A stretch of 64,000 nucleotides of DNA from an uncultured bacterium (GCA_964472075.1 CAYYIY010000002.1:23771-87770); one strand, 5' to 3'; positions 39,711 through 58,056 are shown, counted from the stretch's first letter. Program-made: numbers and translations. Notes: a model not told the origin generated them from the letters alone.

Positions 39711-40736
39711 CTATTTTCCGGCGGCCCATTTGATTATAGGTTCAGCACGCCAGGGTAGTGACATCTGATTATGGCTGCGCAGGTTCTTGTGAAAGGCGGA
39801 CACTTCCGACAGTTTCTTCCAGTCGATGCGACCGCCGCGCAGGCCGTCGAAAGCGAGCAGCGTCAGTTCGTTCCAGGACTTGATCCACTGGCAGGCGAGA
39901 GCAGGGTTCCATTCCTGAAACTCGTCGACATCCTTTCGTACCAGCTGTTTGGCAAAGTGATGATACGCCGGGCGAATGGAGCGGGTCAGGTTCTGAATAC
40001 CAGATGAAACGCAGTTGGCCCCAAGAAAATGATATTTTTGCACTTCGGGCATGTCTGTCTTTTCGGGGTATTCGGCGCGCAGAGCGCGAATGGCCGTGAG
40101 AGCCGCCAGACGCGCCGCTTCTTCCGCTTCGGCGAGAAAGAACCCTACGATGTCGACGCGCTCGGGGTTCAGACGATTTCGCACTTTCGCTTCGAGCGGC
40201 TTTTTCCCTTGAAACGCCTCGAGAGAACTCGCGCGCATCTGTAACAGCTGAAAGCCGATCGTACCATCGATGCTGAACGCTTTCTCAGGACCAGTGCCCA
40301 TAATCAACTCGCGAATCTGCGTGGAACGGTTGCCGCGCTGATACAGGGTGATGCCTCTCTCGCCGAAATCAAACAGGGCGCCGAAATGAAACACCTTGGG
40401 CGCGATCGGCTGATTGATGACTTCAGCCGCAACGATCAATAGCGGGTCGATATCTGCCGACCACAGTTCATTCTTGTGAAAGATGTTGTCGATGCGGATT
40501 CTTCCGTCGGAAAGCAGGGACGCATGAGTTACGGCCCGGTCTCCCTTGGCGAAGATCAAACGATAGGCATACGGGTGCTTGAGAATGAACGGCGGGATCT
40601 CGACGCCGCAGACCGTCAGGGCCGGAAGATCGGAGGTCGGCGAGGGGCTGACCGAGCGCGCCAGAAGAAGCTGAGAGGGTGACGTCAGCGCGAGAGATAA
40701 CACGAGGATCAGGGTGGTGAGCGAAAGCCTTGGCAT
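39711..40736 (-). CDS. Hypothetical secreted protein
   Basis: A signal peptide is present (MPRLSLTTLILVLSLALTSPS). No recognisable motif was found. Confidence 0.5.
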   Translation of the reverse strand: MPRLSLTTLILVLSLALTSPSQLLLARSVSPSPTSDLPALTVCGVEIPPFILKHPYAYRLIFAKGDRAVTHASLLSDGRIRIDNIFHKNELWSADIDPLLIVAAEVINQPIAPKVFHFGALFDFGERGITLYQRGNRSTQIRELIMGTGPEKAFSIDGTIGFQLLQMRASSLEAFQGKKPLEAKVRNRLNPERVDIVGFFLAEAEEAARLAALTAIRALRAEYPEKTDMPEVQKYHFLGANCVSSGIQNLTRSIRPAYHHFAKQLVRKDVDEFQEWNPALACQWIKSWNELTLLAFDGLRGGRIDWKKLSEVSAFHKNLRSHNQMSLPWRAEPIIKWAAGK

Positions 40737-40738
40737 GA

Positions 40739-41104
40739 TTATCTACCTCCTTGGTTGCAGTCGCTGGATTGATGCAGTTGCGCGGGCGGCGTGCGATGGC
40801 GGCCGGTGTAAAAATCGAGTGAGCAGAAAGGGCAGGAATCGGCGGAAAGTTTGGTCATGGGTTTTCCGCAACTCGGACAGGTGATTCGTTTGTGGACCTG
40901 CAACAGAAGCCAGATCATCACCAGAAACAGAGGCAGAACGGGCCATGGGTCGCCGCCGCTGAAGCCGGTGAGATGTTCCGCGCCGATGAGCAGGAAAGGC
41001 AGACCGACAAGAATGACGAGGTTGCTGAACAACCAGAGTCGTCGTCGCCTGGCGGCTTCCTCTGCCAGATACTGATGTTTGCCGTCATCGTGTGTCTCAT
41101 CCAT
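40739..41104 (-). CDS. Small membrane protein with a C-terminal zinc-ribbon-like CxxC...CxxC
   Basis: Two TM helices are followed by CPSCGKPMTKLSADSCPFC. Confidence 0.45.
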   Translation of the reverse strand: MDETHDDGKHQYLAEEAARRRRLWLFSNLVILVGLPFLLIGAEHLTGFSGGDPWPVLPLFLVMIWLLLQVHKRITCPSCGKPMTKLSADSCPFCSLDFYTGRHRTPPAQLHQSSDCNQGGR

Positions 41105-41120
41105 GTTCGGCTACGTCGGC

Positions 41121-42266
41121 CTACTCGTCCAACACGTCGAGCAGCCAGTCGGCCGACGCCTCGGCAGATTCACCGTCGGGGCCGGTCCAGGTGCTGTCTC
41201 GAGAAACCTGGTTGCCGTCCTTTCCCCAGGTCACGTCATGCTGCGCGGTTTTCCCGGCGTCGTTTGTCCAGGTTGTCTGTTTCTTCCCGTCGCTCCAGGT
41301 CGTGCTTCCGTCCAATGTCTTCACTTTTCCATCTGGTCCGGTGACCGTGACGTCCTTGTCGACCTGTTTCCCGTCAACGGTGGTCACGGTCTGTACCGTA
41401 GTGGTCTTTCCCTCGGGCCCGGTCCAATGGCCGGTGGTCTGATACTGGTTTCCTTGTTTGGTCGTCGTACGGTCGAGATCGACGGTTTTGCCCTGCTGAT
41501 TTGTCCAGGTTTTGTCGGTATTCCAGGTGTTGCCCTCTCGGACGGTTTGTCCTTTCACATCCACCTGCCCGCCCTGGGGTCCGTTCCATTGGCCGGTCGT
41601 ATTCACGGTGTTGCCGTCGCGTGTCGTCGTCGACTGGTGCGTGACCTGCTTTCCCTGTTCGCCGGTCCAGGTTTTCTGCTCGTTGACGGTGTTGCCGTCT
41701 CGGGTGCGGGTGCCGTTGACCTGCGTTTCATGCCCCTTGGGGCCTGTCCAGGTGCCCTGCTGGTTCCAGGTGGTGCCGTTACGGGTGGTCGTGCCGCCGT
41801 AGGTGCTGGTGTTGCCGGCCGGACCGGTCACCTGTCCCTGGTTGTTCCATTGTTTCCGGCCGCCTCCGAGGGCTTCGAGCCGTTTCGCGATTTCCGGCAG
41901 GTTCTGTTGCAGGGAAGAGCGTGCTTCAGGATTCATGCCCTGAAAGTGGGCTTTCAGTTCGCCGAGCTTCTGCTGAAAAGCCGCCTGATCTCCGCTTTGC
42001 CTGGCCTCTCGCAACGCTTTGAGGCGTTCCTGAAACCCTTGAAACTGCGGGTTCGACTGCTGCATCTGCTGCCAGCGCTCGCGAAAGGCCTGCATCTTCT
42101 CGGCGTTTCCTTCGCCCCATTTGGCTTTCCACTGTTGCATCCGTTCCTGCCAGGTCCCTTGAGCGCCTTCGCCTTGTTGCCGGTTCTGCCGCTTCTCTTT
42201 CATCTTCTCGCGCCAGGTCCCGTCTTCGGCGTTTCCCTGTTGTCGGTTCTGCCACTTTTCCTTCAT
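41121..42266 (-). CDS. Tandem-repeat protein (Q/W-rich coiled region plus about 8 TWTGP-type repeats), downstream part
   Basis: Repeats of ~27 aa occur, for example GTWTGPKGHETQVNGTRTRDGNTVNEQ, KTWTGEQGKQV..., GHWTGPEGK... and VTVTGPDGK.... The N-terminal part has WxEKxQxRQQ repeats. This ORF is in the same frame as 42276..42491 and is separated from it only by a single TGA. Confidence 0.55.
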   Translation of the reverse strand: MKEKWQNRQQGNAEDGTWREKMKEKRQNRQQGEGAQGTWQERMQQWKAKWGEGNAEKMQAFRERWQQMQQSNPQFQGFQERLKALREARQSGDQAAFQQKLGELKAHFQGMNPEARSSLQQNLPEIAKRLEALGGGRKQWNNQGQVTGPAGNTSTYGGTTTRNGTTWNQQGTWTGPKGHETQVNGTRTRDGNTVNEQKTWTGEQGKQVTHQSTTTRDGNTVNTTGQWNGPQGGQVDVKGQTVREGNTWNTDKTWTNQQGKTVDLDRTTTKQGNQYQTTGHWTGPEGKTTTVQTVTTVDGKQVDKDVTVTGPDGKVKTLDGSTTWSDGKKQTTWTNDAGKTAQHDVTWGKDGNQVSRDSTWTGPDGESAEASADWLLDVLDE

Positions 42267-42440
42267 CCTGTCTCGTCAGGTCCCGCCTTCAGCGCTTTCG
42301 GTCTGCTGGTTTTGCCTGCGCTCCTGCAGCTTTTCCTTCCAGGCCGCCTGCCCGGAACCGCTTTGCTGACGGTTCTGCAACCTTTCCTTCCAGGCTCCGC
42401 GGCCGGCATTCTGTGCCGGCAGGTTGGTGATCGTGCCCAG
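41180..42440 (-). repeat. Coding tandem repeats of ~54-81 nt
   Basis: Repeated DNA units such as GGACCTGGCGCGAGAAGATGAAAGAGAAGCGGCAGAACCGGCAACAAGG and GGCC..GGTCCAGGTG.. appear on the complementary strand. They correspond to the peptide repeats. Confidence 0.6.
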
Positions 42441-42491
42441 AATCAGGCTGCATACAATGACGCTCAACAGAAGACAACGGTTCATGATCAA
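42276..42491 (-). CDS. Signal peptide plus first WKE(K/R)LQ repeats, the N-terminal fragment of the same repeat protein
   Basis: MIMNRCLLLSVIVCSLILGTITNLPAQNA is a signal peptide. It is followed by AWKERLQNRQQ and AWKEKLQERRQNQQ repeats that continue beyond the in-frame TGA into 41121..42266. Confidence 0.5.
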   Translation of the reverse strand: MIMNRCLLLSVIVCSLILGTITNLPAQNAGRGAWKERLQNRQQSGSGQAAWKEKLQERRQNQQTESAEGGT

Positions 42492-42758
42492 CCTCCGCGC
42501 ATAGGTATTCCGCTTGGCGAGGACTTGTACGTAGTATAGCCGCTGCCGGCTCGAGAGAAAAGAGCGGCGTTCACTTCATAAGGTCATTTCGTGCTCCATC
42601 GTTTTTCCGTCGGCAACGACGAATCGCTGAGCGATGCCGGCGGGAAAACAGAGTTTCGAGAGAACGAAAATGACCTTGTCATACGCACTGGGACAACGTG
42701 GTCCCTTCGCCCGCCGAGAGAACGCCCCTTTGTCATGCAATTCTCAGAGCGTGCGAGA

Positions 42759-43241
42759 TCAGGAAAACGATTGTTCGAGAAGCTCGAAGAAGGTCTGCAT
42801 GCGGCTGGTGATGCGATCGGCCGCCTCTCGCGCGATGCCGCTGATGCGGACGGTATAGGTGGGAAAGAGCTGATTATCGCTTTCGATACCGACTTGTACG
42901 CCGGCAGGAAGGTTGCGGAACTCGCGAACGAAGACCGGGCGTTCGGTCGACTGCCAGTTTTCGCTCATGTGTTCCAGCGATTCGTAACGAAAGACGAGGT
43001 GAGGAGTGCGTATCTCATAGTGAATCTCGGTCGATGCCATACCAATATTGCGCACCAGACAATGAAACGTGCCGGGGTGATCATCGAGTCCGCCGACGAT
43101 ATCCCATGCGAGAAGCGCCCAGGCAATGCATTGGTCGGTCTCGTCTTTCAGGGTCTCAAACAAGTCTGTGCGCGACTCGACCGCAGCCGGCGAGGGAGAG
43201 GGCAATCGCCGACAACGTACGAATAGATGTGAGCCTGACAC
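42759..43241 (-). CDS. Hypothetical protein, strand assignment uncertain
   Basis: The minus ORF (160 aa) has stronger GC3 bias than the overlapping plus ORF 42591..43226. Neither has recognisable motifs. Confidence 0.3.
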   Translation of the reverse strand: MSGSHLFVRCRRLPSPSPAAVESRTDLFETLKDETDQCIAWALLAWDIVGGLDDHPGTFHCLVRNIGMASTEIHYEIRTPHLVFRYESLEHMSENWQSTERPVFVREFRNLPAGVQVGIESDNQLFPTYTVRISGIAREAADRITSRMQTFFELLEQSFS

Positions 43242-43251
43242 CGCTCTGTGA

Positions 43252-45558
43252 CTAGAACAACGGCTTCAGGAAGCCGAGTTTCGAGCAGAGCTTCACCAGC
43301 CACATCTTCTTTGACTCGATGTTCTCGGGCCCGAATTCAGGGGTGGTCGCCGTCGCTAACCGGTACTCTTTCGACTTCGCCATCGCGGCCATGATGTCAC
43401 GACGCACTTCGCGAGCGAACTCCACCGACTTGATAACGGCCACAACCTCGCTGTTTACCTTCTCGCTGAGAAAATCGAAGTTGTACGTACCGATGATACT
43501 GATCTGTCCGTCGAAGACGAAGTTCTTGGCGTGCAACTGCCCGGCGCTGACGCGAGCGAACATGCGGCAGGTCGGCATGTTCTTGAGCATGGTGCGCCAT
43601 TCACTCATGATGATGCCTTCCGTCGGGAAACTGTCGGAAGTCTCCGGGCTGTTGGTATGGATGTAGATCGGTACACCGCGTCGCGCCGCGCGTTTGAGCG
43701 CCGCTTCAGCACGTGGGGTCAGTACGATGTACGGGTTCTGAATGATGATCTCTTTCTTGCTGCCGTCGATGAAGCGAATGAGCGCTTCGGTGATGTCATT
43801 ACGCGGACCCGAGAGCGAATGCTTGTCGAGAATCTTGACCGGGCAGCGATGGGCGCTGCCGAACGGGTCGAACGTCGGATACCCGATCATGTTCTTATAC
43901 TGAGTGAGCTTGTCGTTGAACTCTTTGAGTTTGTCGGCGATCTCGCGACCGGCTTTGGCCGGATTGAGCAGTGGCCGTCGGTTCAGGGCGGCATTCATCG
44001 TGGTATAGGCGGCATCGAGCAGCCGCAGCTTGCTGTCATGAGATTCATCCTTGCCGACCTCGTAGGCTTTCAGCAGGCTGAACTCTTCGACGAAAGCCCG
44101 GTCGAGTTGCCCGGCGACAGCCTCGCTGTCAATGACGACGTCGCAATCGAGCCAGGCGGCTTTGTCGTCGATCGGGTCGACCAGATACTCGTCGGCGATG
44201 TTGCGTCCGCCGATGATGGCATATCGACCGTCGACCACCACGATCTTGTCATGGTTGCTGGAAACGATGCGGCGGATGTCGGTGAACATCGAGACCAGAT
44301 TGCTCTGAATTGGGTTGTACACCTTGATCTCGACGTTCGGAAAGCGCAGCATGACCCGCAGATAATCTCGCGCCCAGAGCGGGGTTGCGAATTTCGTGGT
44401 GCCGCGCGCGTCGACCATCAGCCTGATCTTAACGCCCTGCCGTGCTTTTTGTACCAGGTGTCCGAGGAACGAATAGCCGAAAATATCGTTTTCAATGATG
44501 AAATACTGAATGTCGATGCTCTCGCGCGCCTCGCTGAGAAACTTCCAGCGGGCATACCAGGCATCATAGTTGTTATACAGCAGTTTTATCGAGGCTTGAT
44601 CATCTGATACCAGCCCGTTGTTATCATTCACCGACTGGTACTCATCGAAAACCTTGTCGACCGGCGGCGCGAACGGAGCACCCATCTCCTCAAACCAGAG
44701 TTGGAAATCGCTTTCCTTGTTCTGCGCGCGAATGAAAGAAACGGATGTGGCGAGATATCTGGTCCAGCGAGCGAGCTTCACCGGCAGGGCCAGCCAGGAA
44801 GTCTCCTTGTACTTCTTGAAGGCCTCGTTCATGGCGGCGGCCTTGTCGTTGACCGACTTCTTCCAGACCAGGCGATCGCCCATGGCGTTGTTGTATTTGA
44901 TGCGCAGTTTCGCATAGATGCCCCAGCGGCCTGAATCCGGGTCGTCCGCGACTTCCTGATACAGTTTATTGGCCAGCGCACGACTGCCGAGAACCTCGTC
45001 ACAGGCTTTCGCCAGCTCATACTTGATGCGACTGCGATCAGGCAGGTTCGGATTGGCGGCCAGATATGCGGTGATCTGTCCGACAATGGCTTCGGCATAC
45101 TGCTGTGAAGGTCGGGCTTTCAGGGCATTCATCAGTTGCTGAATGTTCGCGCTGAACGTGGCGGGGTCGTCGTCTCTAAACCCGGTGGCCGATGATTGGT
45201 TCGGAGAATCAGGGATTCCAAGGGTCGAAGCGGAATCGTCGGACGCTCCGGCGTCGGCCGAAGACAGGTGGGAGCCGGTCGAGGCAAGGGCCGTTCCAGC
45301 CCCCGCGGACGGCAGCGACTGAATATAGGTTTCCTTGGCGACCTGGTAGTCGCGCAGGGCCTTTTCGATCTCGGCGGCGGGTGCCTGGCGTGCGATGGCG
45401 CTCTGATATGCCTGATACGCGCTCGAATACGCCCGAAATGCCTGCGTGGAACTATCTTCCGCCCAGGCGACTGAGAAGATCGAAACGACCATCAGGAGCA
45501 TTGTCAGTAGTCGATTTTTCCGCATCATAAACGCCTCTTTTGCCACAGACTGTCTCAT
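43252..45558 (-). CDS. Phospholipase D-family protein (two HKD motifs) with a signal peptide and a TPR-like N-terminal region
   Basis: HKD motifs are NHDKIVVVDGRYAIIGGRN and LHAKNFVFDGQISIIGTYNFD. The signal peptide is MMRKNRLLTMLLMVVSIFSVAWA. Confidence 0.8.
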   Translation of the reverse strand: MRQSVAKEAFMMRKNRLLTMLLMVVSIFSVAWAEDSSTQAFRAYSSAYQAYQSAIARQAPAAEIEKALRDYQVAKETYIQSLPSAGAGTALASTGSHLSSADAGASDDSASTLGIPDSPNQSSATGFRDDDPATFSANIQQLMNALKARPSQQYAEAIVGQITAYLAANPNLPDRSRIKYELAKACDEVLGSRALANKLYQEVADDPDSGRWGIYAKLRIKYNNAMGDRLVWKKSVNDKAAAMNEAFKKYKETSWLALPVKLARWTRYLATSVSFIRAQNKESDFQLWFEEMGAPFAPPVDKVFDEYQSVNDNNGLVSDDQASIKLLYNNYDAWYARWKFLSEARESIDIQYFIIENDIFGYSFLGHLVQKARQGVKIRLMVDARGTTKFATPLWARDYLRVMLRFPNVEIKVYNPIQSNLVSMFTDIRRIVSSNHDKIVVVDGRYAIIGGRNIADEYLVDPIDDKAAWLDCDVVIDSEAVAGQLDRAFVEEFSLLKAYEVGKDESHDSKLRLLDAAYTTMNAALNRRPLLNPAKAGREIADKLKEFNDKLTQYKNMIGYPTFDPFGSAHRCPVKILDKHSLSGPRNDITEALIRFIDGSKKEIIIQNPYIVLTPRAEAALKRAARRGVPIYIHTNSPETSDSFPTEGIIMSEWRTMLKNMPTCRMFARVSAGQLHAKNFVFDGQISIIGTYNFDFLSEKVNSEVVAVIKSVEFAREVRRDIMAAMAKSKEYRLATATTPEFGPENIESKKMWLVKLCSKLGFLKPLF

Positions 45559-46446: not shown

Positions 46447-46562
46447 TGAGTCCTCCGGGGAAAAATCGTGTGATACGGCGGCTATTGTAACACCCTTTTG
46501 TCCGAAGGAAAACGTTTACGGGAGTGGCGAACTGATGCGTGTTTGCGATATCCTGACCCATC

Positions 46563-49500
46563 ATGAGTGATGAGCGCCTGCCCTTGATCGAAGCCACCCC
46601 CTCCGCTGACGAACCTGCGGCGGCTTCTCAAACTTGTACAAACGACACAGGTTCTTCCGAGCCTTCAACAGCAGTCGAACCGCCGACGTCAGCTCAGACA
46701 ACATCTCACGTCCCTGCTTCCGCTCTGCCGACGGTCGAACCAGAGCCGGGTTCCGTGCCGGAAGACGCTCGAAAACCGGTTGAGGCCGCTGCCACCAAGG
46801 CTCCACTCGAAATCGAACTGGATCTTGATACGCGCCTAAGCTGGGCGATGGAATGCAACGGGGTTCCGCTGATTCGCCGCCTGACGGTGCGGCATTGCGG
46901 TTCGGACCCGTTCACATCACTCCACGTCGAAATCACCCTGGGAGATCTGGCACGACCATTGTCGCTGAAGATCAGCCGGCTGGAGCCGGGAAACACCTGG
47001 ACGGTCGAAGCGCCGAACCTGATCCTCGCCGGAGGGCGTCTACGCTCTCTCAGCGAACGGGAACGCGCGCATCTGACGGTGCGTTGCCTTGACGGAGAGC
47101 GTGAGTTGACCCAGGTCGAGCACCCGATCGACGTTTTGGCCGGCAACGAATGGGACCGCACGCGATTACCCGAACTTCTCGCGGCGTTCGTCACGCCGAA
47201 CCACCCTTTCATTTCATCGCTCTTGCAGCAGGCGCGTCGAATTCTCGAACGTGAGACCGGTGATGCCGGTTTTCGCGGGTATGCGGGTCGATCGAGAGAG
47301 CCTGTCTATGCGGCGGCGCAGGCTGTCTACGAAGGGCTGGCCGAACTCGATCTGACCTACGTTCCGGCTCCGGTCTCGTTTGAAACGAGCGGGCAAAAGA
47401 TTCGTCTGGTCGACGATCTCGAGCGCCACCGGCTCGGCAACTGTCTCGACGTTTCCCTGGCGGTCGCTGCCGCGCTCGAACTGGCTGGATTGCACCCTGT
47501 TCTGGTGCTGTTACGCGGTCACGTGGTGCCGGGAGTCTGGCTGATCAACGAATGGCTGCCGATCACCGTCAGCGACGATCGCCTGATTGCCGAAAAACTG
47601 GTCAAATGCGGCGATCTGCTGCTGTTCGAGGCGACGGCCGCCCTGCAGAGACCGCTCCCGTCCTTCGAGTCGGCTGTACAGCATGCCGAAGAACTGTTGC
47701 GTTCAGGCGAAGCGTTCGAACTGCTGCTCGACATTCGGGCGGCCCGTCTGGCACGCCTGTTGCCCCTGCCGCTGCGTCGCTCTGATGAAACGGTTTCCAA
47801 TCGCCCGGATGAGAGCGGCACACCGACGCTCGATCACGGAACCTCGCGTTTTGAGAAGACGGCCGATCAATCAGACCCGGCTTTCCGCGTCGCGACCCCG
47901 GCTGCACCTCGCATCGAGTCCTGGAAGGAACGGTTGCTCGACCTTTCCCTGCGCAATCGTCTGCTGCATTATCGTCCGAGTCGTGAAAAGACAATCCCGC
48001 TGTCGGTACAGGATCTCCCGACCCTGGAAGATCGTCTGGCGGACGGCAGATCGTTGACGCTCGAACCATTACCCGAACTGTCCGCCGCTGAACCGCGCGC
48101 GGCGGATCTGGTTGAAGATCGAGGCGGCGATCGACAGTTTGAGACAGAGTGTCGTCGGCTTCTGGAGCATGATCGGTTGCTATGCAGCCTGGACGAATCA
48201 GAACTGCAGCGGCGCTGCCGCGCCATTTTTCGTCAGGCCCGCACCGAGCTGGAAGAGACCGGCAGCAGTACGTTGTTTCTGGCTCTCGGCTTTCTGCGCT
48301 GGTACGAGTCCGAGCAGTCGACCATGCCGCGTCTTGCCCCGATTCTGCTCTACCCTGTCGAAATGATCCGGCCCGTGCTGCGCGGGCGTTATGTCGTGCG
48401 TCTGCGCGATGACGATCCGCGACTGAACGACACGCTGATTGAAAAACTGCGGCGTGAGTTCCAGCTCGACTTTTCGCCGCTGAAGACGCTGCCGCTCGAC
48501 GAATCTGGGATTGATCTGGCGGTGGTATTGAGCCTGCTGCGACAGGTGACGGCGCGCCTGCCCCGTTTCGACGTTCTCGATCAGGCGGTGCTCGGGTTCT
48601 TTTCCTTCACCAAGTTTCTGATGTGGCGCGATCTGACCTCAAACCTCGACGATCTGATGCGCAACGAACTGGTTCGCCACATGGTCGAGGGAAAGGCGAA
48701 CGCGGTGTTCGCCGGGCAGACGTTCACGGATGAAGCACATCTCGATGCCGACTACTCACCCGACCAGCCCCCGATCATCCTCGATGCCGACGGCAGCCAG
48801 CTGACGGCTATCGACGCGGCCTTGCGCGGCCACACGTTTGTGCTGCAGGGCCCGCCGGGTACGGGCAAGTCCCAGACGATCGCGAACATCATCGCGGCAA
48901 GCATGGCGGCAGGGCGACGGGTACTGTTCGTCGCCGAGAAACGCGCGGCACTCGAAGTCGTGGCGAAACGCCTGCGAGCCGTCGGGCTGGGCGATGCCTG
49001 CCTCGAGCTGCATAGCAACCGCGCCAACAAGCGCGAAGTGGCGCTCGAGTTATTCCGCGTTTACCAGATGAGGCCGGAAGCCGCCGTCCCGGATTCGACA
49101 GCTCTGATTCGTGAGCTTTCCACCGATCGCGAGACCCTGAATGCTCATGCGGCTCTCATGAACGGCGCGACGCCGCTGGGACCGACGCACCATGAACTGC
49201 TGGGGCGACTTGTACGAACGACCATCGACGGCGAACCCGGCCTGCTCGGAGTGTCAGCGGATCGCCCCGGAACGATGATTTCACAGGCACTCGATGTCGA
49301 TGCCGGTCTCTGGCGTACCTGGAAGCAGTTGATACGCGAAGCAGCTGACGCGGCTTTCCCGTTTTTCCCTCCGAGTTCGCATGCCCTGCATGCCTGTCGT
49401 GTCACGGAATGGACTCCCGCGCTCGAACAGGAGCGCGAGGCTGAGATGCGAGCATTTCAATCTGCCGCAGAGCTTCTGCGACAGTGCGTCATAAAAGTAC

Positions 49501-52500
49501 AAACAGCGCTGGGGTGTCGTTTCGAGGTGCAGGTGAAACATCTGCGGGTGCTCGACCGTCTGTTGCAGATTCTGGAAACCCCCGTTCGTGACGGGGTGTC
49601 CGGCCTGCTGCAACGTAACGATGTCGAGCAGGTTCTCGAACGTCTCGATCGATTGCTGGCCTGGTCGGTCGAGCGCGAAACACTGTGGAAGAGCCTCGAG
49701 TCTACGTTCCTGCCGACGTTGCTTGACTGCGATCTGCTACGATTGCAACGTGAGATGTTATCGTATCGTGACTCATTCGTCCTCTGGCGCTGGTGGAACC
49801 TGCGCAGCTGCTGGTCCGAACTGGCGGCGGTCTCGCGCGCGCCGTTGCCCGATCTGCCGCAGGTTCTGGCGTGTCTGGCTTCGGCACTGCGTATTCAGGA
49901 GCTGGATCGCAACATGGGCGGCGAAGAAGAGCTGCTGGTCGCCTTGCTCGGCCCGTCTCTGCATCGGCGACTTCCCGATCACACCGAGATCGCGACTCTG
50001 GTTTGTACGGTTCGCGACTGGCGATCGGCTGCCGAACAACTGCCGCTCGACCATCTGGTGATACTGTCTGAGACGACGAGTGCCGCCGAGCGTTGGGCGC
50101 TGCGTCCTGGTGAGTCCGGAACCCTTGCTGCAATATCTGCTCAACAGGCTGGTGAACTACGTCGCGAACTCGGACAAGCGATTCACAGGTTCGGCGAGAG
50201 TTGGGCCGTTGCCGCCGTTGGATGGCGAATTCGAGCCGTCGAGGCGTTTCAGGCGGAAGGCGATGAGCTGGTTCCGGAGCGCATGCTGGCCCAGAGTCGG
50301 GCCTGGCTCGATCAGACACGGAATCTGAGAGACTGGAGCCGGTGGGTGCGTGCGCTTGAAGCTCTCGAACAGCATGGTTTGCTCGGGGTGACCCAGCGGC
50401 TGGCCGCCGGCAGAGTACCGATCGATGTCTGGGAGACAACCTTTGACAACTGGCTGGCGCACGAGCGATACAATGCGCTTTGTGTTCGATATCGCTCTGT
50501 GGCCGAGTTTTCTGGGCGTCGCCATGACCGTGTCGTTGAGCGCTTTCGGGCGAACGATCGTGAACTGCTCGAGCGTCGTCGTCGTGAAATCCGTGCGGCC
50601 CTTGCCGCGCGGCGACCCTCTTTCGGTGCGACGGTCAGCGAGTTTTCCGAAGTCGGGATTCTGCAGAAGGAAGCGCGCCGCAAGCGCGGCCACCTGCCGG
50701 TGCGCCGCCTGCTGGAGCGGATTCCGCATCTGCTCGGTCGACTGAAACCATGTCTGCTGATGAGCCCTCTTTCGATTGCTCAGTATCTGCCGCCCGGAGG
50801 CGAACCGTTCGACCTGGTCATCTTCGATGAAGCCTCGCAGATTGCGGTTCACGACGCGGTCGGCGCCATTGCCCGCGGTCGTCAGGTCATCGTCGTCGGT
50901 GACAGCAGACAGCTGCCCCCGACCTCGTTTTTCCAGGCGGATACCGACACCGGCGTTGAGGATGCCGCCGACCTCGATGCCGAACAGCTGCTGGCCCGCG
51001 ACCTCGAAAGCATTCTCGAGGAAACCGCCGCCGCGCTCGTTCCCAGCCTGATGCTGCGTTGGCACTATCGCAGTCGCGATGAAAGGCTGATTGCCTTCAG
51101 CAATAACCGGTACTATGGGGGCAATCTGCAGACGTTTCCGGCAGCCGTGGGAATGGCGGAATCGGGGGTGCAGCTGGTACCTGTTGCCGGGGTGTTTCAG
51201 CGCGGTACGAGTCGGACAAACCCGGCAGAAGCCATGGCAACGGCACATGCCGTGGTGGAATTCCTGCGTGACGAATCGAAACGTCATCTCTCGCTTGGAG
51301 TGGTCACCTTCAATCAGCCGCAACAGATGCTGATCGAAGATCTCCTGGACGATGCGCGGGCCCGATACCCCGAGATCGAGCCGTATTTCAGCGAACGAGT
51401 GCCTGAGCCGGTGTTCGTTAAAAATCTTGAAAATGTGCAGGGTGATGAACGCGATGTGATGCTGTTTTCCGTGACGTATGGCCCGGACGAATCCGGGAAC
51501 GTGTCGATGAACTTCGGGCCGCTGAATCGAGCGGGAGGCGAAAGACGCCTGAATGTCGCCATCACGCGTGCTCGCCGCAACCTGCTGGTGTTTTCAAGTC
51601 TGAACCCCGAAACGATCGACCTGAATCGTACGGCTGCGGTGGGTGTTCATCATCTGCGGGACTTTCTACGATATGCCGCGGGGCGCGATATCGGCGTCGT
51701 GGTTCCGGTGAATCGGGCCGAAGAGGGCATTCATGGCGATCACCGTGAGAACTTCCTGGCGAGCACGATCGCGAGTTTCCTGCGTGCGCAAGGGTATCGT
51801 GTGAAAGAACGGGTCGGTTGTGCCCGCTACAGGCTTGATCTTGCCGTCTACGACCCGGACAATGGCAGAGTCCTGATGGGTATCGAGACCGACGGAACGG
51901 CTTATGGTGCCCCAGGCCCGGCGAGAGATCGTGAACGGCTGCGAGCCGAAGTGCTGCGGGATCTCGGGTGGCGACTGTGCCGCTGCTATCTGCTGGACTG
52001 GCTCATTCACCCCGAAATCGAACAGGAACGTCTGATCGCGCTTCTGGAAAAAGCGCGACGTGAACCCGCCGACCCACTGCCGCCCGGTATGAATGCCCAT
52101 TGGACACCGGAATCGCCGGAAGGTCCCGCGGAAGATGCGCCGGCGGACATCCCGGCATCCGGTCAGCCTGTCGTTGAGGCTTCGGTCACCGAATCCGGCG
52201 CTTCTGATGCCGTCGTCGAACCTGCGAAGACAGCGAACGGACTGCCGCCCTTTGTCTTTTTCAGCATCGATAAACTCGGCGAACCGGAGGCGTTCACGCG
52301 CAGAGACCAGACGGAACGGCTGAAACAACTGCTGGTGAAGCTTATCGATCTTGAAGGACCGGTTCATGTTGATCGGGTCGGCAAAGTGCTGACTCAGGCA
52401 TACGGTATGACCAGGGTTGGCTCTCGCGCTGCACAGCGGGTCGACGAACTTGTACAAATGCTCTGTGCCGACAACAGGGTGCGAATAGCGGAGGAGTTTC

Positions 52501-52832
52501 TCTGGCCGGCGACGCTTGATCCGCTGCAGGACTTGCCGCCGGCACGCGGGCCGGCCGTGGATGGCAGCGTGCGCCCCGCCGAACAGATCGCACCAGAGGA
52601 AATGGCCGCAGCGGCACTGCGATTGCTTGAGCAGGCTGTGAGTCTGCCGCGGGGCGAACTCATGCGCGGTACGGCATCGGCGATGGGGTATCGGCGACTG
52701 ACACCGAGAACTCAGCCGTTCTTTCAGGCGGGAATTCAACTGCTGCTTGATCGAGGCAGGGCCGAGATCAACGGCGAAGCCATTCGCCTGCCGAACCTCT
52801 CGCCCGGCACGGTGACACCAGGTTCACGGTAA
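46563..52832 (+). CDS. Giant (2089 aa) helicase-nuclease protein: DUF4011-like N-terminus with a transglutaminase-like motif, a Upf1/DNA2-family SF1B helicase, a PD-(D/E)xK (Vsr/DUF559-like) endonuclease-like domain and a DUF3320-like C-terminus
   Basis: Walker A is VLQGPPGTGKSQTIANII and Walker B is VIFDEASQ. Further helicase motifs are VVGDSRQLPPT, DERDVMLFSVTYG and LNVAITRARRNLLVFSS. A later segment, RYRLDLAVYD...GIETDGTAYG, is endonuclease-like. The N-terminal segment LGNCLDVS...RGHVVPGVW is a Cys-His transglutaminase-like pattern. Confidence 0.85.
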   Translation: MSDERLPLIEATPSADEPAAASQTCTNDTGSSEPSTAVEPPTSAQTTSHVPASALPTVEPEPGSVPEDARKPVEAAATKAPLEIELDLDTRLSWAMECNGVPLIRRLTVRHCGSDPFTSLHVEITLGDLARPLSLKISRLEPGNTWTVEAPNLILAGGRLRSLSERERAHLTVRCLDGERELTQVEHPIDVLAGNEWDRTRLPELLAAFVTPNHPFISSLLQQARRILERETGDAGFRGYAGRSREPVYAAAQAVYEGLAELDLTYVPAPVSFETSGQKIRLVDDLERHRLGNCLDVSLAVAAALELAGLHPVLVLLRGHVVPGVWLINEWLPITVSDDRLIAEKLVKCGDLLLFEATAALQRPLPSFESAVQHAEELLRSGEAFELLLDIRAARLARLLPLPLRRSDETVSNRPDESGTPTLDHGTSRFEKTADQSDPAFRVATPAAPRIESWKERLLDLSLRNRLLHYRPSREKTIPLSVQDLPTLEDRLADGRSLTLEPLPELSAAEPRAADLVEDRGGDRQFETECRRLLEHDRLLCSLDESELQRRCRAIFRQARTELEETGSSTLFLALGFLRWYESEQSTMPRLAPILLYPVEMIRPVLRGRYVVRLRDDDPRLNDTLIEKLRREFQLDFSPLKTLPLDESGIDLAVVLSLLRQVTARLPRFDVLDQAVLGFFSFTKFLMWRDLTSNLDDLMRNELVRHMVEGKANAVFAGQTFTDEAHLDADYSPDQPPIILDADGSQLTAIDAALRGHTFVLQGPPGTGKSQTIANIIAASMAAGRRVLFVAEKRAALEVVAKRLRAVGLGDACLELHSNRANKREVALELFRVYQMRPEAAVPDSTALIRELSTDRETLNAHAALMNGATPLGPTHHELLGRLVRTTIDGEPGLLGVSADRPGTMISQALDVDAGLWRTWKQLIREAADAAFPFFPPSSHALHACRVTEWTPALEQEREAEMRAFQSAAELLRQCVIKVQTALGCRFEVQVKHLRVLDRLLQILETPVRDGVSGLLQRNDVEQVLERLDRLLAWSVERETLWKSLESTFLPTLLDCDLLRLQREMLSYRDSFVLWRWWNLRSCWSELAAVSRAPLPDLPQVLACLASALRIQELDRNMGGEEELLVALLGPSLHRRLPDHTEIATLVCTVRDWRSAAEQLPLDHLVILSETTSAAERWALRPGESGTLAAISAQQAGELRRELGQAIHRFGESWAVAAVGWRIRAVEAFQAEGDELVPERMLAQSRAWLDQTRNLRDWSRWVRALEALEQHGLLGVTQRLAAGRVPIDVWETTFDNWLAHERYNALCVRYRSVAEFSGRRHDRVVERFRANDRELLERRRREIRAALAARRPSFGATVSEFSEVGILQKEARRKRGHLPVRRLLERIPHLLGRLKPCLLMSPLSIAQYLPPGGEPFDLVIFDEASQIAVHDAVGAIARGRQVIVVGDSRQLPPTSFFQADTDTGVEDAADLDAEQLLARDLESILEETAAALVPSLMLRWHYRSRDERLIAFSNNRYYGGNLQTFPAAVGMAESGVQLVPVAGVFQRGTSRTNPAEAMATAHAVVEFLRDESKRHLSLGVVTFNQPQQMLIEDLLDDARARYPEIEPYFSERVPEPVFVKNLENVQGDERDVMLFSVTYGPDESGNVSMNFGPLNRAGGERRLNVAITRARRNLLVFSSLNPETIDLNRTAAVGVHHLRDFLRYAAGRDIGVVVPVNRAEEGIHGDHRENFLASTIASFLRAQGYRVKERVGCARYRLDLAVYDPDNGRVLMGIETDGTAYGAPGPARDRERLRAEVLRDLGWRLCRCYLLDWLIHPEIEQERLIALLEKARREPADPLPPGMNAHWTPESPEGPAEDAPADIPASGQPVVEASVTESGASDAVVEPAKTANGLPPFVFFSIDKLGEPEAFTRRDQTERLKQLLVKLIDLEGPVHVDRVGKVLTQAYGMTRVGSRAAQRVDELVQMLCADNRVRIAEEFLWPATLDPLQDLPPARGPAVDGSVRPAEQIAPEEMAAAALRLLEQAVSLPRGELMRGTASAMGYRRLTPRTQPFFQAGIQLLLDRGRAEINGEAIRLPNLSPGTVTPGSR

Positions 52833-53059: not shown

Positions 53060-53103
53060 CGACTACCACTATGTACCGTATCACTTTTCAGCGGGAGAGA
53101 ATC

Positions 53104-54456
53104 ATGATGCGTTTCGTTCGTTGGAGCCTGGTGTTGTTTTTGTTTCTGCAGTCTGTCAGTTCGTTCGGCGCCGGATTCATGGTTCGCGAACATTCGCAGG
53201 CTTCTCTCGGTAGTGCGTTTGCCGGAGTTCATGCCGGCTCTCATGACCTTGCCGACATGTTTTTCAACCCTGCTGCATTGTACTATCAACCCGACCGGGC
53301 AGCGTTGGTCGGTATGGCCGGCATGATGCCGAAAGCGAAGTTCCGCCTTTCCTCAGCGACGACCTTCAACGGTACGGCCGTGACCGGAACCCCCGGCGGG
53401 GAAAACATCGGTGAGGATGCCGTGATTCCTTCGTTGTATCTGGCTCAACCTTCCTGCAAGGGCTGGCGACTCGGACTTTCGGTGAATGCTCCCTGGGGGC
53501 TTTCCACCAAGTGTGACCCGAATTGGGTGGGCCGCTATTATGCGATCGATTCGAAGTTGACGTCGCTGAACGTCATGCCGACCCTGGCGCGTCGACTCAG
53601 CCCTCGCTGGGTGGGCGGGTTCGGCCTGCAGATGCAGAAGCTTGATGCGAAGCTCACCAACGCGATCGATTACGGAACCATCGGCGCGGCTGTGCCGCCG
53701 GCGCAGGGAGGGCCGATTCCCGGTGCCGTGCCGACGACACAGGACGGTCTGGCTGAGTTGAAGGGTGACGACTGGGGATACGGGTTTGTGCTTGGTTTCA
53801 TGTATGAGGCCTCGCCGAAGACGCGCCTCGGGTTCTCGTATCGTTCGAAAGTTGATCAGAATCTGAAGGGAACGGCGACTTTCTACCCCGATGCCGCCGG
53901 GATCAAGAACGTACTTACGGCTGCCGGCGGCGCGTTCGCGACCACCGGGGCGCAGGCCGCCGTGACTACGCCCGAAGTCGTGGGGTTCGGCATGAAGCAC
54001 GAGATGACCGCCTCTCTGACCATGGTTCTCGACGCGGTCTGGAACCGCTGGAGCCGGTACAAGGGATTGACCGTGTATTTCGACAATCCGTCGCAGGCGT
54101 CGTCTCGTGTTCAGGAAGACTGGCACGATGTCTGGTTGACGTCGATCGGCTTCTTGTACAAACTCGCTCCAAAATGGACGCTGCGTGCCGGGTATGCGGT
54201 CGATCGTTCTCCGATTCCTGATGAGCACCGCGTCCCCCGCATTCCCGGCTCGGACGGACGCTTCGCTTCGATCGGCGCCCGCTACCAGGCGTCGCCGCGG
54301 TGTCATGTCGATGTCGGCTACATGCACATCAATTACGACAAAGCTCCGATCATGCTGAAAAGCACCGATCCGGACAGCCTGTTCCGTGGCAATCTGAGCG
54401 GCAGCTTTTCAAACAGCTTCAGGATTCTGGGCGCGCAGATCGCCTGGAACTGGTAG
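53104..54456 (+). CDS. Outer-membrane transport protein of the FadL/TodX (OmpP1) family
   Basis: The signal peptide is MMRFVRWSLVLFLFLQSVSSFGA. The N-terminus AGFMVREHSQASLGSAFAGVHA plus NPAAL is typical of FadL. A beta-barrel pattern follows. The track start was trimmed to 53104. Confidence 0.75.
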   Translation: MMRFVRWSLVLFLFLQSVSSFGAGFMVREHSQASLGSAFAGVHAGSHDLADMFFNPAALYYQPDRAALVGMAGMMPKAKFRLSSATTFNGTAVTGTPGGENIGEDAVIPSLYLAQPSCKGWRLGLSVNAPWGLSTKCDPNWVGRYYAIDSKLTSLNVMPTLARRLSPRWVGGFGLQMQKLDAKLTNAIDYGTIGAAVPPAQGGPIPGAVPTTQDGLAELKGDDWGYGFVLGFMYEASPKTRLGFSYRSKVDQNLKGTATFYPDAAGIKNVLTAAGGAFATTGAQAAVTTPEVVGFGMKHEMTASLTMVLDAVWNRWSRYKGLTVYFDNPSQASSRVQEDWHDVWLTSIGFLYKLAPKWTLRAGYAVDRSPIPDEHRVPRIPGSDGRFASIGARYQASPRCHVDVGYMHINYDKAPIMLKSTDPDSLFRGNLSGSFSNSFRILGAQIAWNW

Positions 54457-54466
54457 CACGAACCCC

Positions 54467-55366
54467 TCAGTTCTTCGTTTCCTCGTCGGCGAGAAAGCCC
54501 TCGTAGCCGCGCCGGGCTTTCATGTGCTGCATGGTTTCGAGACCGCCCGGATACTGGCCGATGTTGATGAACAGATCTTTCAGGCGGGCTCGGGTTTCCG
54601 CCGGAAGTTCGCGACTGGCGACGATCGGGTCGGTGGGAATCCATTGCACCCAGCTGAGGCATCGCGTCCCAGTCGGAATGCCGGATTCGTCGCCGGAATC
54701 GATGAAAATGGCGGCAGCATCGGCCGTGCCCGATAGCAGAGCGTCAAGGCTGCGGCTGTGATTGCCGCTGAACAGCACCTCTGAGAACGAGGCAACCGGA
54801 TCCATGCCATGCTCGCGTAACAAGCGAGCCGGGTACAGAAAACCGCTACCGGAAAATCGGTCGACGTATGCCATGCGATGACCGCCGAGATCCTCGACGG
54901 AATGATACGGACTATCACTACGCACGAGAATGGCGGAACGATAGTGGGCGCGCCCGCGTTGAATCGGGTGGCAGAGAATCTCCACCATATCTCGCCTCTT
55001 CCAGGTCTCGAGAAGCGCGGTGCCGAGCCAGGCAACCTGGACTTTTCCGGCTTCGATCAATTGAATGAGAGAGCGGTAGTCATCGGCAACCAGAATTCTG
55101 ACCTGAATACCGAGATGGCGGCTGAGAAAGGCCATCAGCAGAGAAAAATGTTCCGCCAGTTCCTCGTCGGTCTGATACGGCAGAATGCCGAAGTTGATCA
55201 GACGGTCGGCCGAGTGCTGCCAGGTGATCTTCATGTTTCCGTCGTTGGCATGCTCGAGGCCGATCAATTGCCGGAACAAGGGTGACGCCGACCAGGACTC
55301 CGGATGCAGGACGGCAAAAAACGCGAGAGGAATGACGAGAAGGAGAACGAGGAATAGCCATTTCAT
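54467..55366 (-). CDS. PhnD/SsuA-type periplasmic substrate-binding protein (phosphonate/phosphite-binding-like)
   Basis: A signal peptide is present. Motifs AVLPYQTDEEL-like, IQVRILVADDY and RMAYVDRFSGSGFLYP are typical of the PhnD family. No ABC permease or ATPase gene is adjacent. Confidence 0.65.
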   Translation of the reverse strand: MKWLFLVLLLVIPLAFFAVLHPESWSASPLFRQLIGLEHANDGNMKITWQHSADRLINFGILPYQTDEELAEHFSLLMAFLSRHLGIQVRILVADDYRSLIQLIEAGKVQVAWLGTALLETWKRRDMVEILCHPIQRGRAHYRSAILVRSDSPYHSVEDLGGHRMAYVDRFSGSGFLYPARLLREHGMDPVASFSEVLFSGNHSRSLDALLSGTADAAAIFIDSGDESGIPTGTRCLSWVQWIPTDPIVASRELPAETRARLKDLFINIGQYPGGLETMQHMKARRGYEGFLADEETKN

Positions 55367-58056
55367 GGAAGAGATTCCTTTTCCGGCAGAAGTTCATGGT
55401 CGGCCAGACGACGCGGATCAAGAAAACCGGCTTCGATGACCGCAGAGCGAAGTTTTTCCGGTGCGCGAGCGGCGAATAGAATGGCGCTGAGCATGGCGAA
55501 AGTCGTCTCGGGAAGGAAGGGATGCAGAAGTTCGAGCGCGAGAGCCGAGGTCTGCGGATCGTCTGGAATCAGCTTGCGAAAGGTCTCGGGAGAGCAGGCT
55601 TCTCGCGGGCACAACAGTGCCAACAGCGGCGTGAAGTTGCTCCAGCGAATATCCAGCGTCTTCTGCAGCTTCCGCACTTCTTCAGCTTGTACGGACGCGC
55701 GCTCACGAATCTCCAGCAAACGGGCGAAATCCCACATAAAGCCTGAAAGTTGCGAGTGCAACCACCCGCGTATCATCTGATTGTCGGGTGTTGTCAGAGC
55801 GAGAAGGAGCGGCAATGACTCAACCGGCTGAAGCAGGGTCTCCCGTCGCACCTGCTCGAGCAGCGGGGTGTCGTTCAAGACCAGGCTGCCGTCTGCCTGT
55901 TCGATCAGGCACGAGTCAAGAATCGTGTTCAGTGTCGGTGATGATTCAGACAATGATTCCAGAATGCCCGGCAGGCGATCGGCGGGCTGCAGTCGAAGAA
56001 GACGCTGCAACAGAGAGGGGGAGAGACGACTGCGCAGGGCGCGGAGCCAGATGCCCGTGCGGTGCCGTTCTTCCAGAGACATGCCTGCCAACGCTCTTTG
56101 CAGGCTGGTCTGCAGTTGTCCGGAAAGTTCGTTCCAGCAGGTGCGGGCGAAGGTGCCGCGCACCCCCGTTTGCGACAGGCGTTTGCTGACAAACTCGAGA
56201 ACCGGCTGCGTGCCGACCGACGCCAGCGCGTGATAGGCACAGCGGGCGACATCTTCGCTGGGGTCATCGACCAATCGGAAGAGCGCGTCGGCGAAAACCG
56301 GGAATCCGAGGCGCCCCATGACGACGGCGGCGGTCGAACGATCGCGGGCGGAATGACCTTCACGCAGACCCGCAAGGGCTTCAAGTGCCTGGGGAATCAG
56401 GCGACGGCCGACTCCGTGTCGAAGATAGGAGAGAACGGCGCTGCCGCGCACCCGATGGTGAGGGTGATCGAAGAACGATGAGAACATCCATTCAAAATCG
56501 GGGTGCATGGTCTGATCAGCCGCATCGAGAACGTCGGCGATGCGTCGTGGGTTTGTACAAGAACCCAGATAGGCAGACAACGGTTGCACTTGATCGGCCG
56601 AGCGCAGCATGAACCGGGTCATGCCGGCGACCAGTGTGGCATCGTTGACCTGCGGCAATCGTTCGCGAATCAACTCGTGCAACTCGGGAAGATTGAGAGG
56701 ACCGAGTCGCAGCAACGCCTTGAGTTGGACATCACGATCTGAATCCTGAAAGAGGCGTTGCAGCATTTGTCGTCGTGCCGTCGGCGGGAGCAGTTTGAAT
56801 CCGTCGAGGCTGGTGGTCGGCACGTCAGAACCGTCGGTGAGCGTTTCACGGATCATTTCTGGATACAGGTTGAGCAGCGATCGGTTGAAACGCAGAGTCA
56901 GCAGAGCGATGATCGAGATGACGAGAAAAACGACGGGCTGTGCTCCGCTGTTGTAACTGTTCCAGGCAGCGAGTGCCAGGCCGAGTGAGGTGAGCGTGAC
57001 GCAATCGATCAGGTTGAGCAGGCGTCGAACGTACGAGCGAATCTGCAATGGAAGAGGTTCAAGAAGCAGAACCCAGACTGGTGACATGAAAACAAAGGTG
57101 AGCGTGCGTGACAGATACTGAAACCCGGTGATGTTCCAGAAACTCGGCAGAAGCCAGGTGATCACGCCGAAAATTCCGAGAAGCACGGGCCTCAGCGCAA
57201 GAATCGACCCGAGAGAGAGATGCGTGAAAAACCAGCGTCCGGCAAAGGCCTGCAACATCAGGGTCGTTACCTCGATGACGGCATTCAGCGTTCCCAGCAG
57301 GGCGGCGATTCGAGCGGGTCGATCGGCGATCCCCGCATAGAGATCCGGCAGGCCGGCGTTGAACTGAAAATCGACGAGATTGACGACCAGACTGCCCATG
57401 ACCGAAATGACAAACACCATGGAAGAGTACCGGCGATGTACCGGAGAAATCGTGGCCCAGCTGGTGAGAGACGGTATGGTACTTGATGCAGAACTCGACG
57501 TCGGTTGTTCCGGTCGATAACGGGAAAGAATCAGCCACGAGGCGAACCCGACCAGCGGAACCAGCACCAGAAGCGGAAAAAAGCCGGTGGTCGGCAGCAG
57601 AAGACGCAGGCTGACGCCTGCCAGGATCGAGCCGAGAGTGCCGGCGGCCAGCAGCGTGGGCAGGTGCAGGCGAGATTCCTGCAAGGCCCAGGTCTTGCCG
57701 ACCAGATCATAAAACGATTGCGTTGCATGCAGATCCCAGCTGCGATACAGAATCAGGGCGGGAAAGGTGATCCAGCCGGTCGGGTGCGGGAAGAGAACGG
57801 CAAGCAGCAGGGTCAACAGGAACATTGGCGGAAGCGCTCGATGCAGAAACGGCTCTCCGTGCAGATGGGGGCGAGCGAGCAGATAACCCTGGGTGGTCAC
57901 GAAGAGAATCGAGAAACCCACGTAGTACCAGGGCCAGCCTCCTGATCCGAATGATTCAAGAAACAGAGAAGAAAACGCAAGAATCAGAAACGTGTTGAAC
58001 CCGCGCAGGCAGAAGAAAAAGCCCGCGAGGATCGGAAACGCCGAAAGGGAACTCAT
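55363..58056 (-). CDS. Polytopic membrane protein (about 12 TM, MFS/TLC-like) fused to C-terminal HEAT-like repeats
   Basis: The N-terminal ~430 aa are strongly hydrophobic. The C-terminal half has repeated 'D..VR..A..AL' motifs. A 4-nt overlap with the downstream substrate-binding protein gene is present. Confidence 0.55.
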   Translation of the reverse strand: MSSLSAFPILAGFFFCLRGFNTFLILAFSSLFLESFGSGGWPWYYVGFSILFVTTQGYLLARPHLHGEPFLHRALPPMFLLTLLLAVLFPHPTGWITFPALILYRSWDLHATQSFYDLVGKTWALQESRLHLPTLLAAGTLGSILAGVSLRLLLPTTGFFPLLVLVPLVGFASWLILSRYRPEQPTSSSASSTIPSLTSWATISPVHRRYSSMVFVISVMGSLVVNLVDFQFNAGLPDLYAGIADRPARIAALLGTLNAVIEVTTLMLQAFAGRWFFTHLSLGSILALRPVLLGIFGVITWLLPSFWNITGFQYLSRTLTFVFMSPVWVLLLEPLPLQIRSYVRRLLNLIDCVTLTSLGLALAAWNSYNSGAQPVVFLVISIIALLTLRFNRSLLNLYPEMIRETLTDGSDVPTTSLDGFKLLPPTARRQMLQRLFQDSDRDVQLKALLRLGPLNLPELHELIRERLPQVNDATLVAGMTRFMLRSADQVQPLSAYLGSCTNPRRIADVLDAADQTMHPDFEWMFSSFFDHPHHRVRGSAVLSYLRHGVGRRLIPQALEALAGLREGHSARDRSTAAVVMGRLGFPVFADALFRLVDDPSEDVARCAYHALASVGTQPVLEFVSKRLSQTGVRGTFARTCWNELSGQLQTSLQRALAGMSLEERHRTGIWLRALRSRLSPSLLQRLLRLQPADRLPGILESLSESSPTLNTILDSCLIEQADGSLVLNDTPLLEQVRRETLLQPVESLPLLLALTTPDNQMIRGWLHSQLSGFMWDFARLLEIRERASVQAEEVRKLQKTLDIRWSNFTPLLALLCPREACSPETFRKLIPDDPQTSALALELLHPFLPETTFAMLSAILFAARAPEKLRSAVIEAGFLDPRRLADHELLPEKESLP

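Follow-up and report, generated by a model that had tools for sequence, protein, structure and literature searches.

The locus raises the question of what is encoded by an uninterrupted open reading frame (ORF) that runs on the plus strand from an ATG at 46563 to a stop at 52832 and that, according to the ORF list and its translation, specifies 2089 amino acids (aa). It lies in a stretch of 64,000 nucleotides from an uncultured bacterium (GCA_964472075.1 CAYYIY010000002.1:23771-87770), which was analysed as a whole and is called the window below. The initial annotation, made from the DNA alone, had read the product as a transglutaminase-like part, a superfamily 1B (SF1B) helicase and a PD-(D/E)xK nuclease joined in one polypeptide, and had predicted a single-protein anti-phage system. 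The three-module reading holds, as judged by Pfam matches, an AlphaFold2 (AF2) fold and conserved motifs, and the anti-phage prediction agrees with matches to the NCBIfam family ProA and to the PADLOC candidate PDC-S37, as well as with the lack of a conserved neighbour in 80 other loci. We propose that the ORF encodes a full-length, stand-alone giant helicase-nuclease of the ProA family, anti-phage by its curated name and acting by a mechanism of the kind set out below, and we put the probability of this reading at roughly three in four. The mechanism is one that we infer, and the defence role is that of the curated name.

Membership in ProA is carried by the equivalog model NF058533.1, against which the window protein scored 1813.7 bits (cut-off, 1500), with aa 94-2045 aligned to profile positions 2-1903 of 1903. 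The same model gave 2372 bits for a relative on a Pseudomonas aeruginosa plasmid, 2416 for one from Geomonas, 1989 for one from Myxococcus and 1721 for one from a Riflebacteria metagenome-assembled genome, all of which pass, so that the window protein scores towards the bottom of this set. Its domain set and its length are those of about 120 close relatives; it shares 35-45% identity with most relatives, and carries an extra low-complexity N-terminal stretch of ~60 aa. It probably represents a Riflebacteria/Ozemobacteraceae-like lineage, its closest named relatives being from Candidatus Ozemobacteraceae (70% identity) and Riflebacteria (45%). On these profile scores and identities, it is a divergent but valid ProA member. 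The PADLOC candidate PDC-S37 matched aa 449-2074, i.e. DUF4011, helicase, nuclease and tail, with an E-value of 0 and 1230.7 bits over profile positions 8-1544 of 1550, a match at the level of the profile. The PDC-S37 profile begins at DUF4011; aa 85-405, the beta-sandwich plus transglutaminase-like module at the N-terminus, fall within the ProA model but outside this profile.

The extent of the gene depends upon where translation starts. In NCBI the identical protein (P0001) is given a GTG start at 46755 and is 2025 aa long, an annotation that skips the low-complexity stretch. Because ATG 46563 aligned, in a pairwise DNA alignment, with the ATG called for an ortholog of 63% identity (locus L082), it is likely the true start, and translation of the window gene probably begins there rather than at GTG 46755. 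The low-complexity stretch (aa ~12-84, 46596-46814) consists mostly of gap columns when 120 full-length homologs are aligned, the alignment in which motif conservation was also scored, and ~60-70 aa of it are absent from that same ortholog, the closest syntenic one. The gene encodes a full-length and apparently functional member of the ProA family. Its domains follow in the order beta-sandwich, transglutaminase-like domain, DUF4011, split Upf1-like SF1B helicase, Vsr-type nuclease and DUF3320 tail; the motifs listed with them were located in the translation, and every one that had been pointed out from the sequence earlier is no more than a few bases from the place given for it.

46563..52832, plus strand: complete ProA-family gene (ORF translation; NCBIfam NF058533.1; PADLOC PDC-S37)
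46563..46814 (aa 1-84), plus strand: N-terminus of low complexity, rich in Pro/Ser/Thr/Ala/Glu and not conserved (gap columns in the alignment)
46815..47162 (aa ~85-200), plus strand: predicted beta-sandwich (Ig-like) domain
47163..47777 (aa ~201-405), plus strand: predicted transglutaminase/papain-like fold domain with Cys294, His320 and Asp390
47436-47456, plus strand: motif GNCLDVS
47514-47540, plus strand: motif RGHVVPGVW
47931..48449 (aa 457-629), plus strand: DUF4011, with the motif W..LLDLSxRNRLL (Pfam, E 1e-42)
48789..49073, plus strand: N-terminal part of RecA1 of the SF1B helicase, with Walker A (Pfam AAA_11 at aa 743-837, AAA_30, AAA_19)
48849-48872 (aa 763-770), plus strand: Walker A, GPPGTGKS
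49110..50732 (aa ~850-1390), plus strand: poorly conserved insertion of ~540 aa in RecA1 (low column conservation)
50760..51596, plus strand: rest of the helicase core, with DEASQ, motif III GDxxQLPP, and RecA2 with QGDERD and LNVAITRAR (second AAA_11 stretch, AAA_12)
50826-50840 (aa 1422-1426), plus strand: Walker B, DEASQ
51549-51578, plus strand: motif LNVAITRARR
51765..52043 (aa 1735-1827), plus strand: Vsr-type PD-(D/E)xK endonuclease, the MTES_1575 restriction endonuclease (REase) domain (Pfam PF18741)
51825-51854, plus strand: motif RYRLDLAVYD
51879-51896, plus strand: motif GIETDG
52260..52787 (Pfam match at aa 1915-1955), plus strand: C-terminal DUF3320 tail (Pfam PF11784)

The proposed Upf1-type helicase core is borne out by Pfam AAA_11 and AAA_12 and by the best PDB sequence matches of the protein, which are the Upf1-like SF1B helicases IGHMBP2, Upf1/NAM7 and Sen1. 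The AAA_11 match falls into two stretches, aa 743-837 and a second one, on either side of the large insertion in RecA1, and no Pfam family matched aa 850-1410 at E<=10. Upf1/NAM7 is the PDB match of the part that bears Walker A, and IGHMBP2 and Sen1 are those of the later part, in which RecA2 corresponds to AAA_12 (aa 1483-1678). Conservation of helicase motifs I, II, III, V and VI in the 120 homologs is 97-100%, and it reaches 100% for Walker A and Walker B. The nuclease had been described as Vsr/DUF559-like, of which the first half stands: the match to PF18741 (E 2.5e-22; 79.2 bits, cut-off 38.2) identifies a Vsr-type PD-(D/E)xK fold, the MTES_1575 REase domain defined by Anantharaman et al. 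(2013; PMC3710099), and not DUF559 itself. Its motifs read Y1756-R-x-D1759, G-I-E1775-x-D1777-G and R1788-D-R, and the residues Y1756, R1757, D1759, E1775, D1777, G1778, R1788, D1789 and R1790 are each 90-100% conserved in the same alignment. The DUF3320-like tail that had been noted is recognised by Pfam at aa 1915-1955, with E 6e-7 on the whole protein and E 5e-8 on the isolated tail, which also gave a weak match to the Mnd1 helix-turn-helix family. DUF3320 is overlapped by a pair of domains of the winged helix-turn-helix (wHTH) type according to Anantharaman et al. (PMC3710099).

The N-terminal module is the part of the protein for which fold rather than profile carries the assignment. The region aa 85-405 is found in all 120 full-length homologs, and its AF2 model, computed from a 29-sequence alignment, is confident (predicted local distance difference test, 92.6; predicted template modelling score, 0.89). 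In this model a beta-sandwich occupies the first ~115 residues and resembles those of factor XIII, TG2, TG3, HAP2 and GH2 enzymes. The top Foldseek matches were 3kd4 (a putative protease), TG2 and factor XIII, and the structural relatives listed for the module also include transglutaminase-like proteins of axonemal doublets, PNGase, TglA, LapG, PeiW, Rad4/XPC and 3isr. The predicted structure is a papain/transglutaminase fold with Cys at the N-terminus of a helix and His and Asp on the strands that follow: Cys294 opens its helix and His320 its strand, the usual placement in this fold, and Asp390 closes a later strand beyond an inserted helical sub-domain. No Pfam family, including those of the Transglut_core clan, matched aa 1-456 at E<=10, and no transglutaminase was found among the PDB sequences matched by the domain profile; because these profile tests gave nothing relevant, the transglutaminase assignment rests on the fold. 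The model thus supports the transglutaminase-like core proposed by the initial annotation, together with a conserved Cys-His-Asp triad.

Conservation of the triad bears upon whether this domain could be an enzyme. Cys, His and Asp are kept together in 256 of 265 domain instances (~97%), and Cys294, His320 and Asp390 are each ~99% conserved. A single relative, P0008 (44% identity), has lost the putative catalytic Cys, with Gly at that position, and it also has Gln instead of the putative catalytic His. Because the two residues were lost together, the transglutaminase-like domain appears from its sequence to have been inactivated in the P0008 lineage. It is unlikely, in our estimation, that the domain is instead a non-catalytic scaffold that binds DNA or a protein partner, as in Rad4/XPC, one of the structural relatives of the model: near-invariance of the three residues, the joint absence of Cys and His from the sole protein that lacks the Cys, and the modelled position of Cys at the helix N-terminus and of His at the start of a strand, the arrangement seen in active members, all argue against it. 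The conservation and the pattern of joint loss favour a working catalytic dyad or triad over a scaffold. The domain's most likely role is either chemistry of the thiol-hydrolase or transferase kind or the binding of a protein ligand. A more specific and decidedly tentative possibility is that it is an active enzyme (a peptidase, isopeptidase, deamidase or transamidase) serving a sensing or licensing step of immunity, with DUF4011, for which the confident model has no solved structural relative, acting as a nucleic-acid- or partner-binding fold. If this were true, the putative enzyme could act on a phage protein, by cleavage or modification, or on ProA itself, by processing, and so free the helicase-nuclease, thereby coupling protein chemistry to DNA destruction in one polypeptide.

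Translocation in the 5' to 3' direction, driven by ATP, is established for Upf1-like helicases. We propose that DNA or RNA would be engaged by the C-terminal winged-helix pair, by DUF4011 or by both, and that the SF1B motor of ProA, by analogy with those helicases, would move 5' to 3' on a single strand at the expense of ATP. In doing so it would deliver the Vsr-type nuclease to invading DNA or to replication intermediates, where the nuclease would cut, following the logic of other single-polypeptide helicase-nuclease defences. The Cys-His-Asp domain may be a sensing or licensing module that spares host DNA. The same parts could also be arranged in an abortive response, in which a phage cue activates ProA to degrade nucleic acids indiscriminately, host DNA included, and the cell dies or is arrested. 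The helicase-nuclease Hna is reported to act in this way. It is listed among the abortive infection (Abi) systems (PMC13276650). The initial annotation had seen neither a methyltransferase nor a partner, and indeed no methyltransferase or other partner for discrimination of self from non-self is present in any of the 80 loci, as abortive action would allow; likewise, the additional modules, non-catalytic or sensor-like (beta-sandwich, transglutaminase-like domain, DUF4011 and wHTH), could restrain the nuclease until it is triggered. Against transferring the Hna phenotype by homology, neither Nhi nor Hna is among the ten PADLOC families that matched at E<=0.01, a result that likewise places the protein outside the Nhi family. 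We consider abortive infection to be a possible, though rather doubtful, account of the mechanism.

The distribution of the family is as expected of a defence gene: spread is patchy, copies occur on mobile elements, the family is nearly absent from phages and it has no fixed neighbour. In a scan of one genome per species, queried with an 8-sequence alignment, at least 576 species encode the N-terminal domain, among them members of Planctomycetota, Bacteroidota, Bacillota, Myxococcota, Geobacter and Verrucomicrobiota, with a patchy spread across phyla. The profile of this domain matches 7599 clusters at 50% identity, and in the best 150 of them the domain is nearly always N-terminal in proteins of ~2000 aa. 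Full-length copies are carried on plasmids of Paraburkholderia, Rhizobium, Mesorhizobium and Paracoccus, and a 2221-aa ProA (the 2372-bit relative above, WP_003086141.1) is encoded by the 54-kb conjugative P. aeruginosa plasmid pHPA0875-2 (NZ_CP137496.1, 10307-16972; L081). There it is cargo of a conjugative MOBH/MPF_G element and lies beside ParDE, a PaeM bacteriocin gene, genes of integrative and conjugative elements (ICEs) and another ATP-dependent helicase. Phages are essentially without the family. No flanking gene family is common to more than 6 of the 80 loci or occupies a fixed position, and none of the window's neighbours recurs beside ProA in them; because no neighbour recurs or is fixed, ProA is a stand-alone gene. 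Among 130 flanking genes, ~5-6 encode ATPases of OLD, GajA, AriA or PtuA type (Gabija, OLD and PARIS types), and the remainder are heterogeneous, with catalase, tRNA synthetase and sulfatases among them.

Several observations weigh against a defence role for this particular gene or would suit a housekeeping function, namely that of a DNA2- or Sen1-like helicase-nuclease which resolves replication or repair intermediates or R-loops in this lineage. The 63%-identical ortholog, on a contig in ENA, is flanked by the same genes, with identities of 71% for the metallo-beta-lactamase (MBL) protein, 74% for FadL, 69% for the PhnD-like protein and 59% for the HEAT-repeat protein, and because of this synteny a long vertical retention of the locus is suggested. 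The G+C content of the locus shows no anomaly, the locus has no tRNA genes, and no mobile-element domains were found among the profiled neighbours within ~10 kb. Eight neighbours searched with PADLOC gave no match to a defence model within ~10 kb beyond a generic likeness of the phospholipase D (PLD) family to DrmC. The window gene is outside any defence island, and where the initial annotation had proposed to look for a variable island there are ordinary-looking neighbours shared with the closest ortholog. In P. aeruginosa, the core genes include a large one with DUF4011 (PMC10250203), and among solved helicases the nearest are Upf1, IGHMBP2 and Sen1. In addition, the margin of the window protein over the ProA cut-off is only ~300 bits, and it is among the more divergent members, and the primary paper behind the name ProA was not found in full-text literature searches, because of which the defence role rests on the curators' name. 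The string 'ProA' in PMC12642450 was only part of 'Proaerolysin' in a reference, and that paper was rejected as the source of the family name. Full-text searches found no text on PDC-S37 either; the PDC systems tested in the cold-seep validation paper were others.

The evidence from the rest of the family points the other way. The family is very patchily spread across phyla and not universal within them, and copies are carried by conjugative plasmids and ICEs; no partner from a repair or replication operon, a context that the initial annotation had named as telling against its own prediction, recurs in the 80 loci; the more distant Riflebacteria ortholog (45% identity) has entirely different neighbours; the curated family name is anti-phage; and an architecture of Vsr-type REase plus wHTH is typical of conflict systems (PMC3710099). 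A purely housekeeping role is accordingly judged improbable, and a good deal more so than abortive action. The anti-phage ProA reading remains the preferred one, with the qualification that this copy has apparently been kept in place for a long time.

The genes around ProA are as the initial annotation had them, with the MBL-fold and PLD-family genes on one side and the FadL-like gene downstream:

43252..45558, minus strand: PLD-family protein of 767 aa with two PLD/HKD motifs (profile matches)
45821.. to an ATG at ~46448, divergent from ProA: small MBL-fold hydrolase of the Lactamase_B_3/PRK00685 type (profile match; Shine-Dalgarno sequence GGAGGA before the ATG)
46449..46562, no strand: divergent intergenic region of 114 bp between the MBL gene and ProA (aligned with L082 at ~620-732)
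53071..54456, plus strand: FadL/Toluene_X outer-membrane protein (profile match)

The PLD protein has a likeness to cardiolipin synthase that falls below cut-offs and weak likenesses to DISARM DrmC and to NucT; its N-terminal ~300 aa are without a profile match. It was considered as a DrmC-like partner and rejected, the likeness being only that of PLD proteins in general and the gene being absent from the other loci. A link between the MBL gene and the MBL-protease defence modules of PMC12642450 was likewise rejected, this MBL protein being a small hydrolase without a protease partner and no MBL gene recurring beside ProA in the 80 other loci. Downstream, the genes for the FadL-like porin, a PhnD-like periplasmic binding protein and a HEAT-repeat protein of ~900 aa (53071-58056) keep their order and orientation at L082 6997-11973, where a gene for a dCache/HAMP sensor comes after the cluster. 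Upstream, 39711-43226 holds three ORFs, of 340 aa (minus strand), 486 aa (plus strand, TTG start) and 211 aa (plus strand, GTG start), that match nothing in Pfam, NCBIfam or PADLOC, and some of which may not be real genes. The 114-bp intergenic region is about as conserved relative to L082 as the flanking coding sequence, with identical runs TATTGTAACACCCTT, GAGTGGCG and GAAACGTT. No sigma-70 consensus was found in 46449-46562; from its conservation, the region may be a shared promoter or regulatory region.

Among known systems, the nearest outside ProA itself is Hhe, a DUF4011 anti-phage protein that has in common with the window protein DUF4011, a Upf1-like helicase C-terminal half and a Vsr-type nuclease. 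The NCBIfam model of Hhe (NF042953.1) gave 773.8 bits against an equivalog cut-off of 2000, with aa 1239-1836 as the best stretch, and its PADLOC profile gave 562 bits over aa ~1240-1836, so that the strongest match is confined to the C-terminal third. By these scores Hhe is a sister family and not the same family. No solved relative from ProA or Hhe was present among the PDB sequence matches, which makes the group a sensible subject for structural and biochemical study. With ProA and Hhe both bearing curated anti-phage names, the earlier statement that the DUF4011/DUF3320 family as a whole has no assigned function no longer stands, and protein clusters of the family are still named 'DUF3320 domain-containing protein', a label that is out of date; the proper one for this gene is anti-phage protein ProA (PADLOC PDC-S37-like).

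Likeness to Upf1-like SF1B helicases, and to Mokosh, is limited to the motor. Shared with the former are motifs I, II, III, V and VI; the Mokosh proteins MkoA/MkoC matched in PADLOC with E 1e-28 to 1e-31, and TIGR00376, the IGHMBP2 family, matched with E 2e-25, whereas the window protein has a ~540-aa insertion in RecA1 as well as nuclease, transglutaminase-like and wHTH modules that are absent from those proteins. The architecture as a whole corresponds to that of the giant proteins described by Anantharaman, Makarova, Burroughs, Koonin and Aravind (2013; Biol Direct 8:15; PMC3710099), which join a transglutaminase-like peptidase to a superfamily I (SF-I) helicase and to a Vsr-family REase (MTES_1575_REase), with a pair of wHTH domains besides, and which those authors predicted to belong to conflict systems resembling restriction-modification. 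The window protein shares with the MTES_1575-type proteins the Vsr-family REase, the SF-I helicase and a transglutaminase-like domain N-terminal to the helicase. The prototypes from Microbacterium and Brachybacterium add a HEPN RNase domain of the Swt1/Abi2 type, marked by Rx4-6H, for which the window protein has no profile match: no HEPN family in Pfam was found with the whole protein at E<=0.1, or with aa 1-456, 850-1410 and 1830-2089 at E<=10. The system is thus one already known, its architecture having been described in 2013, its anti-phage name given by NCBI curators and its core listed as a PADLOC candidate. Measured against these precedents the broader value of the locus is modest, in that it adds to ProA one divergent Riflebacteria-like member that is kept at a fixed chromosomal locus outside a defence island.

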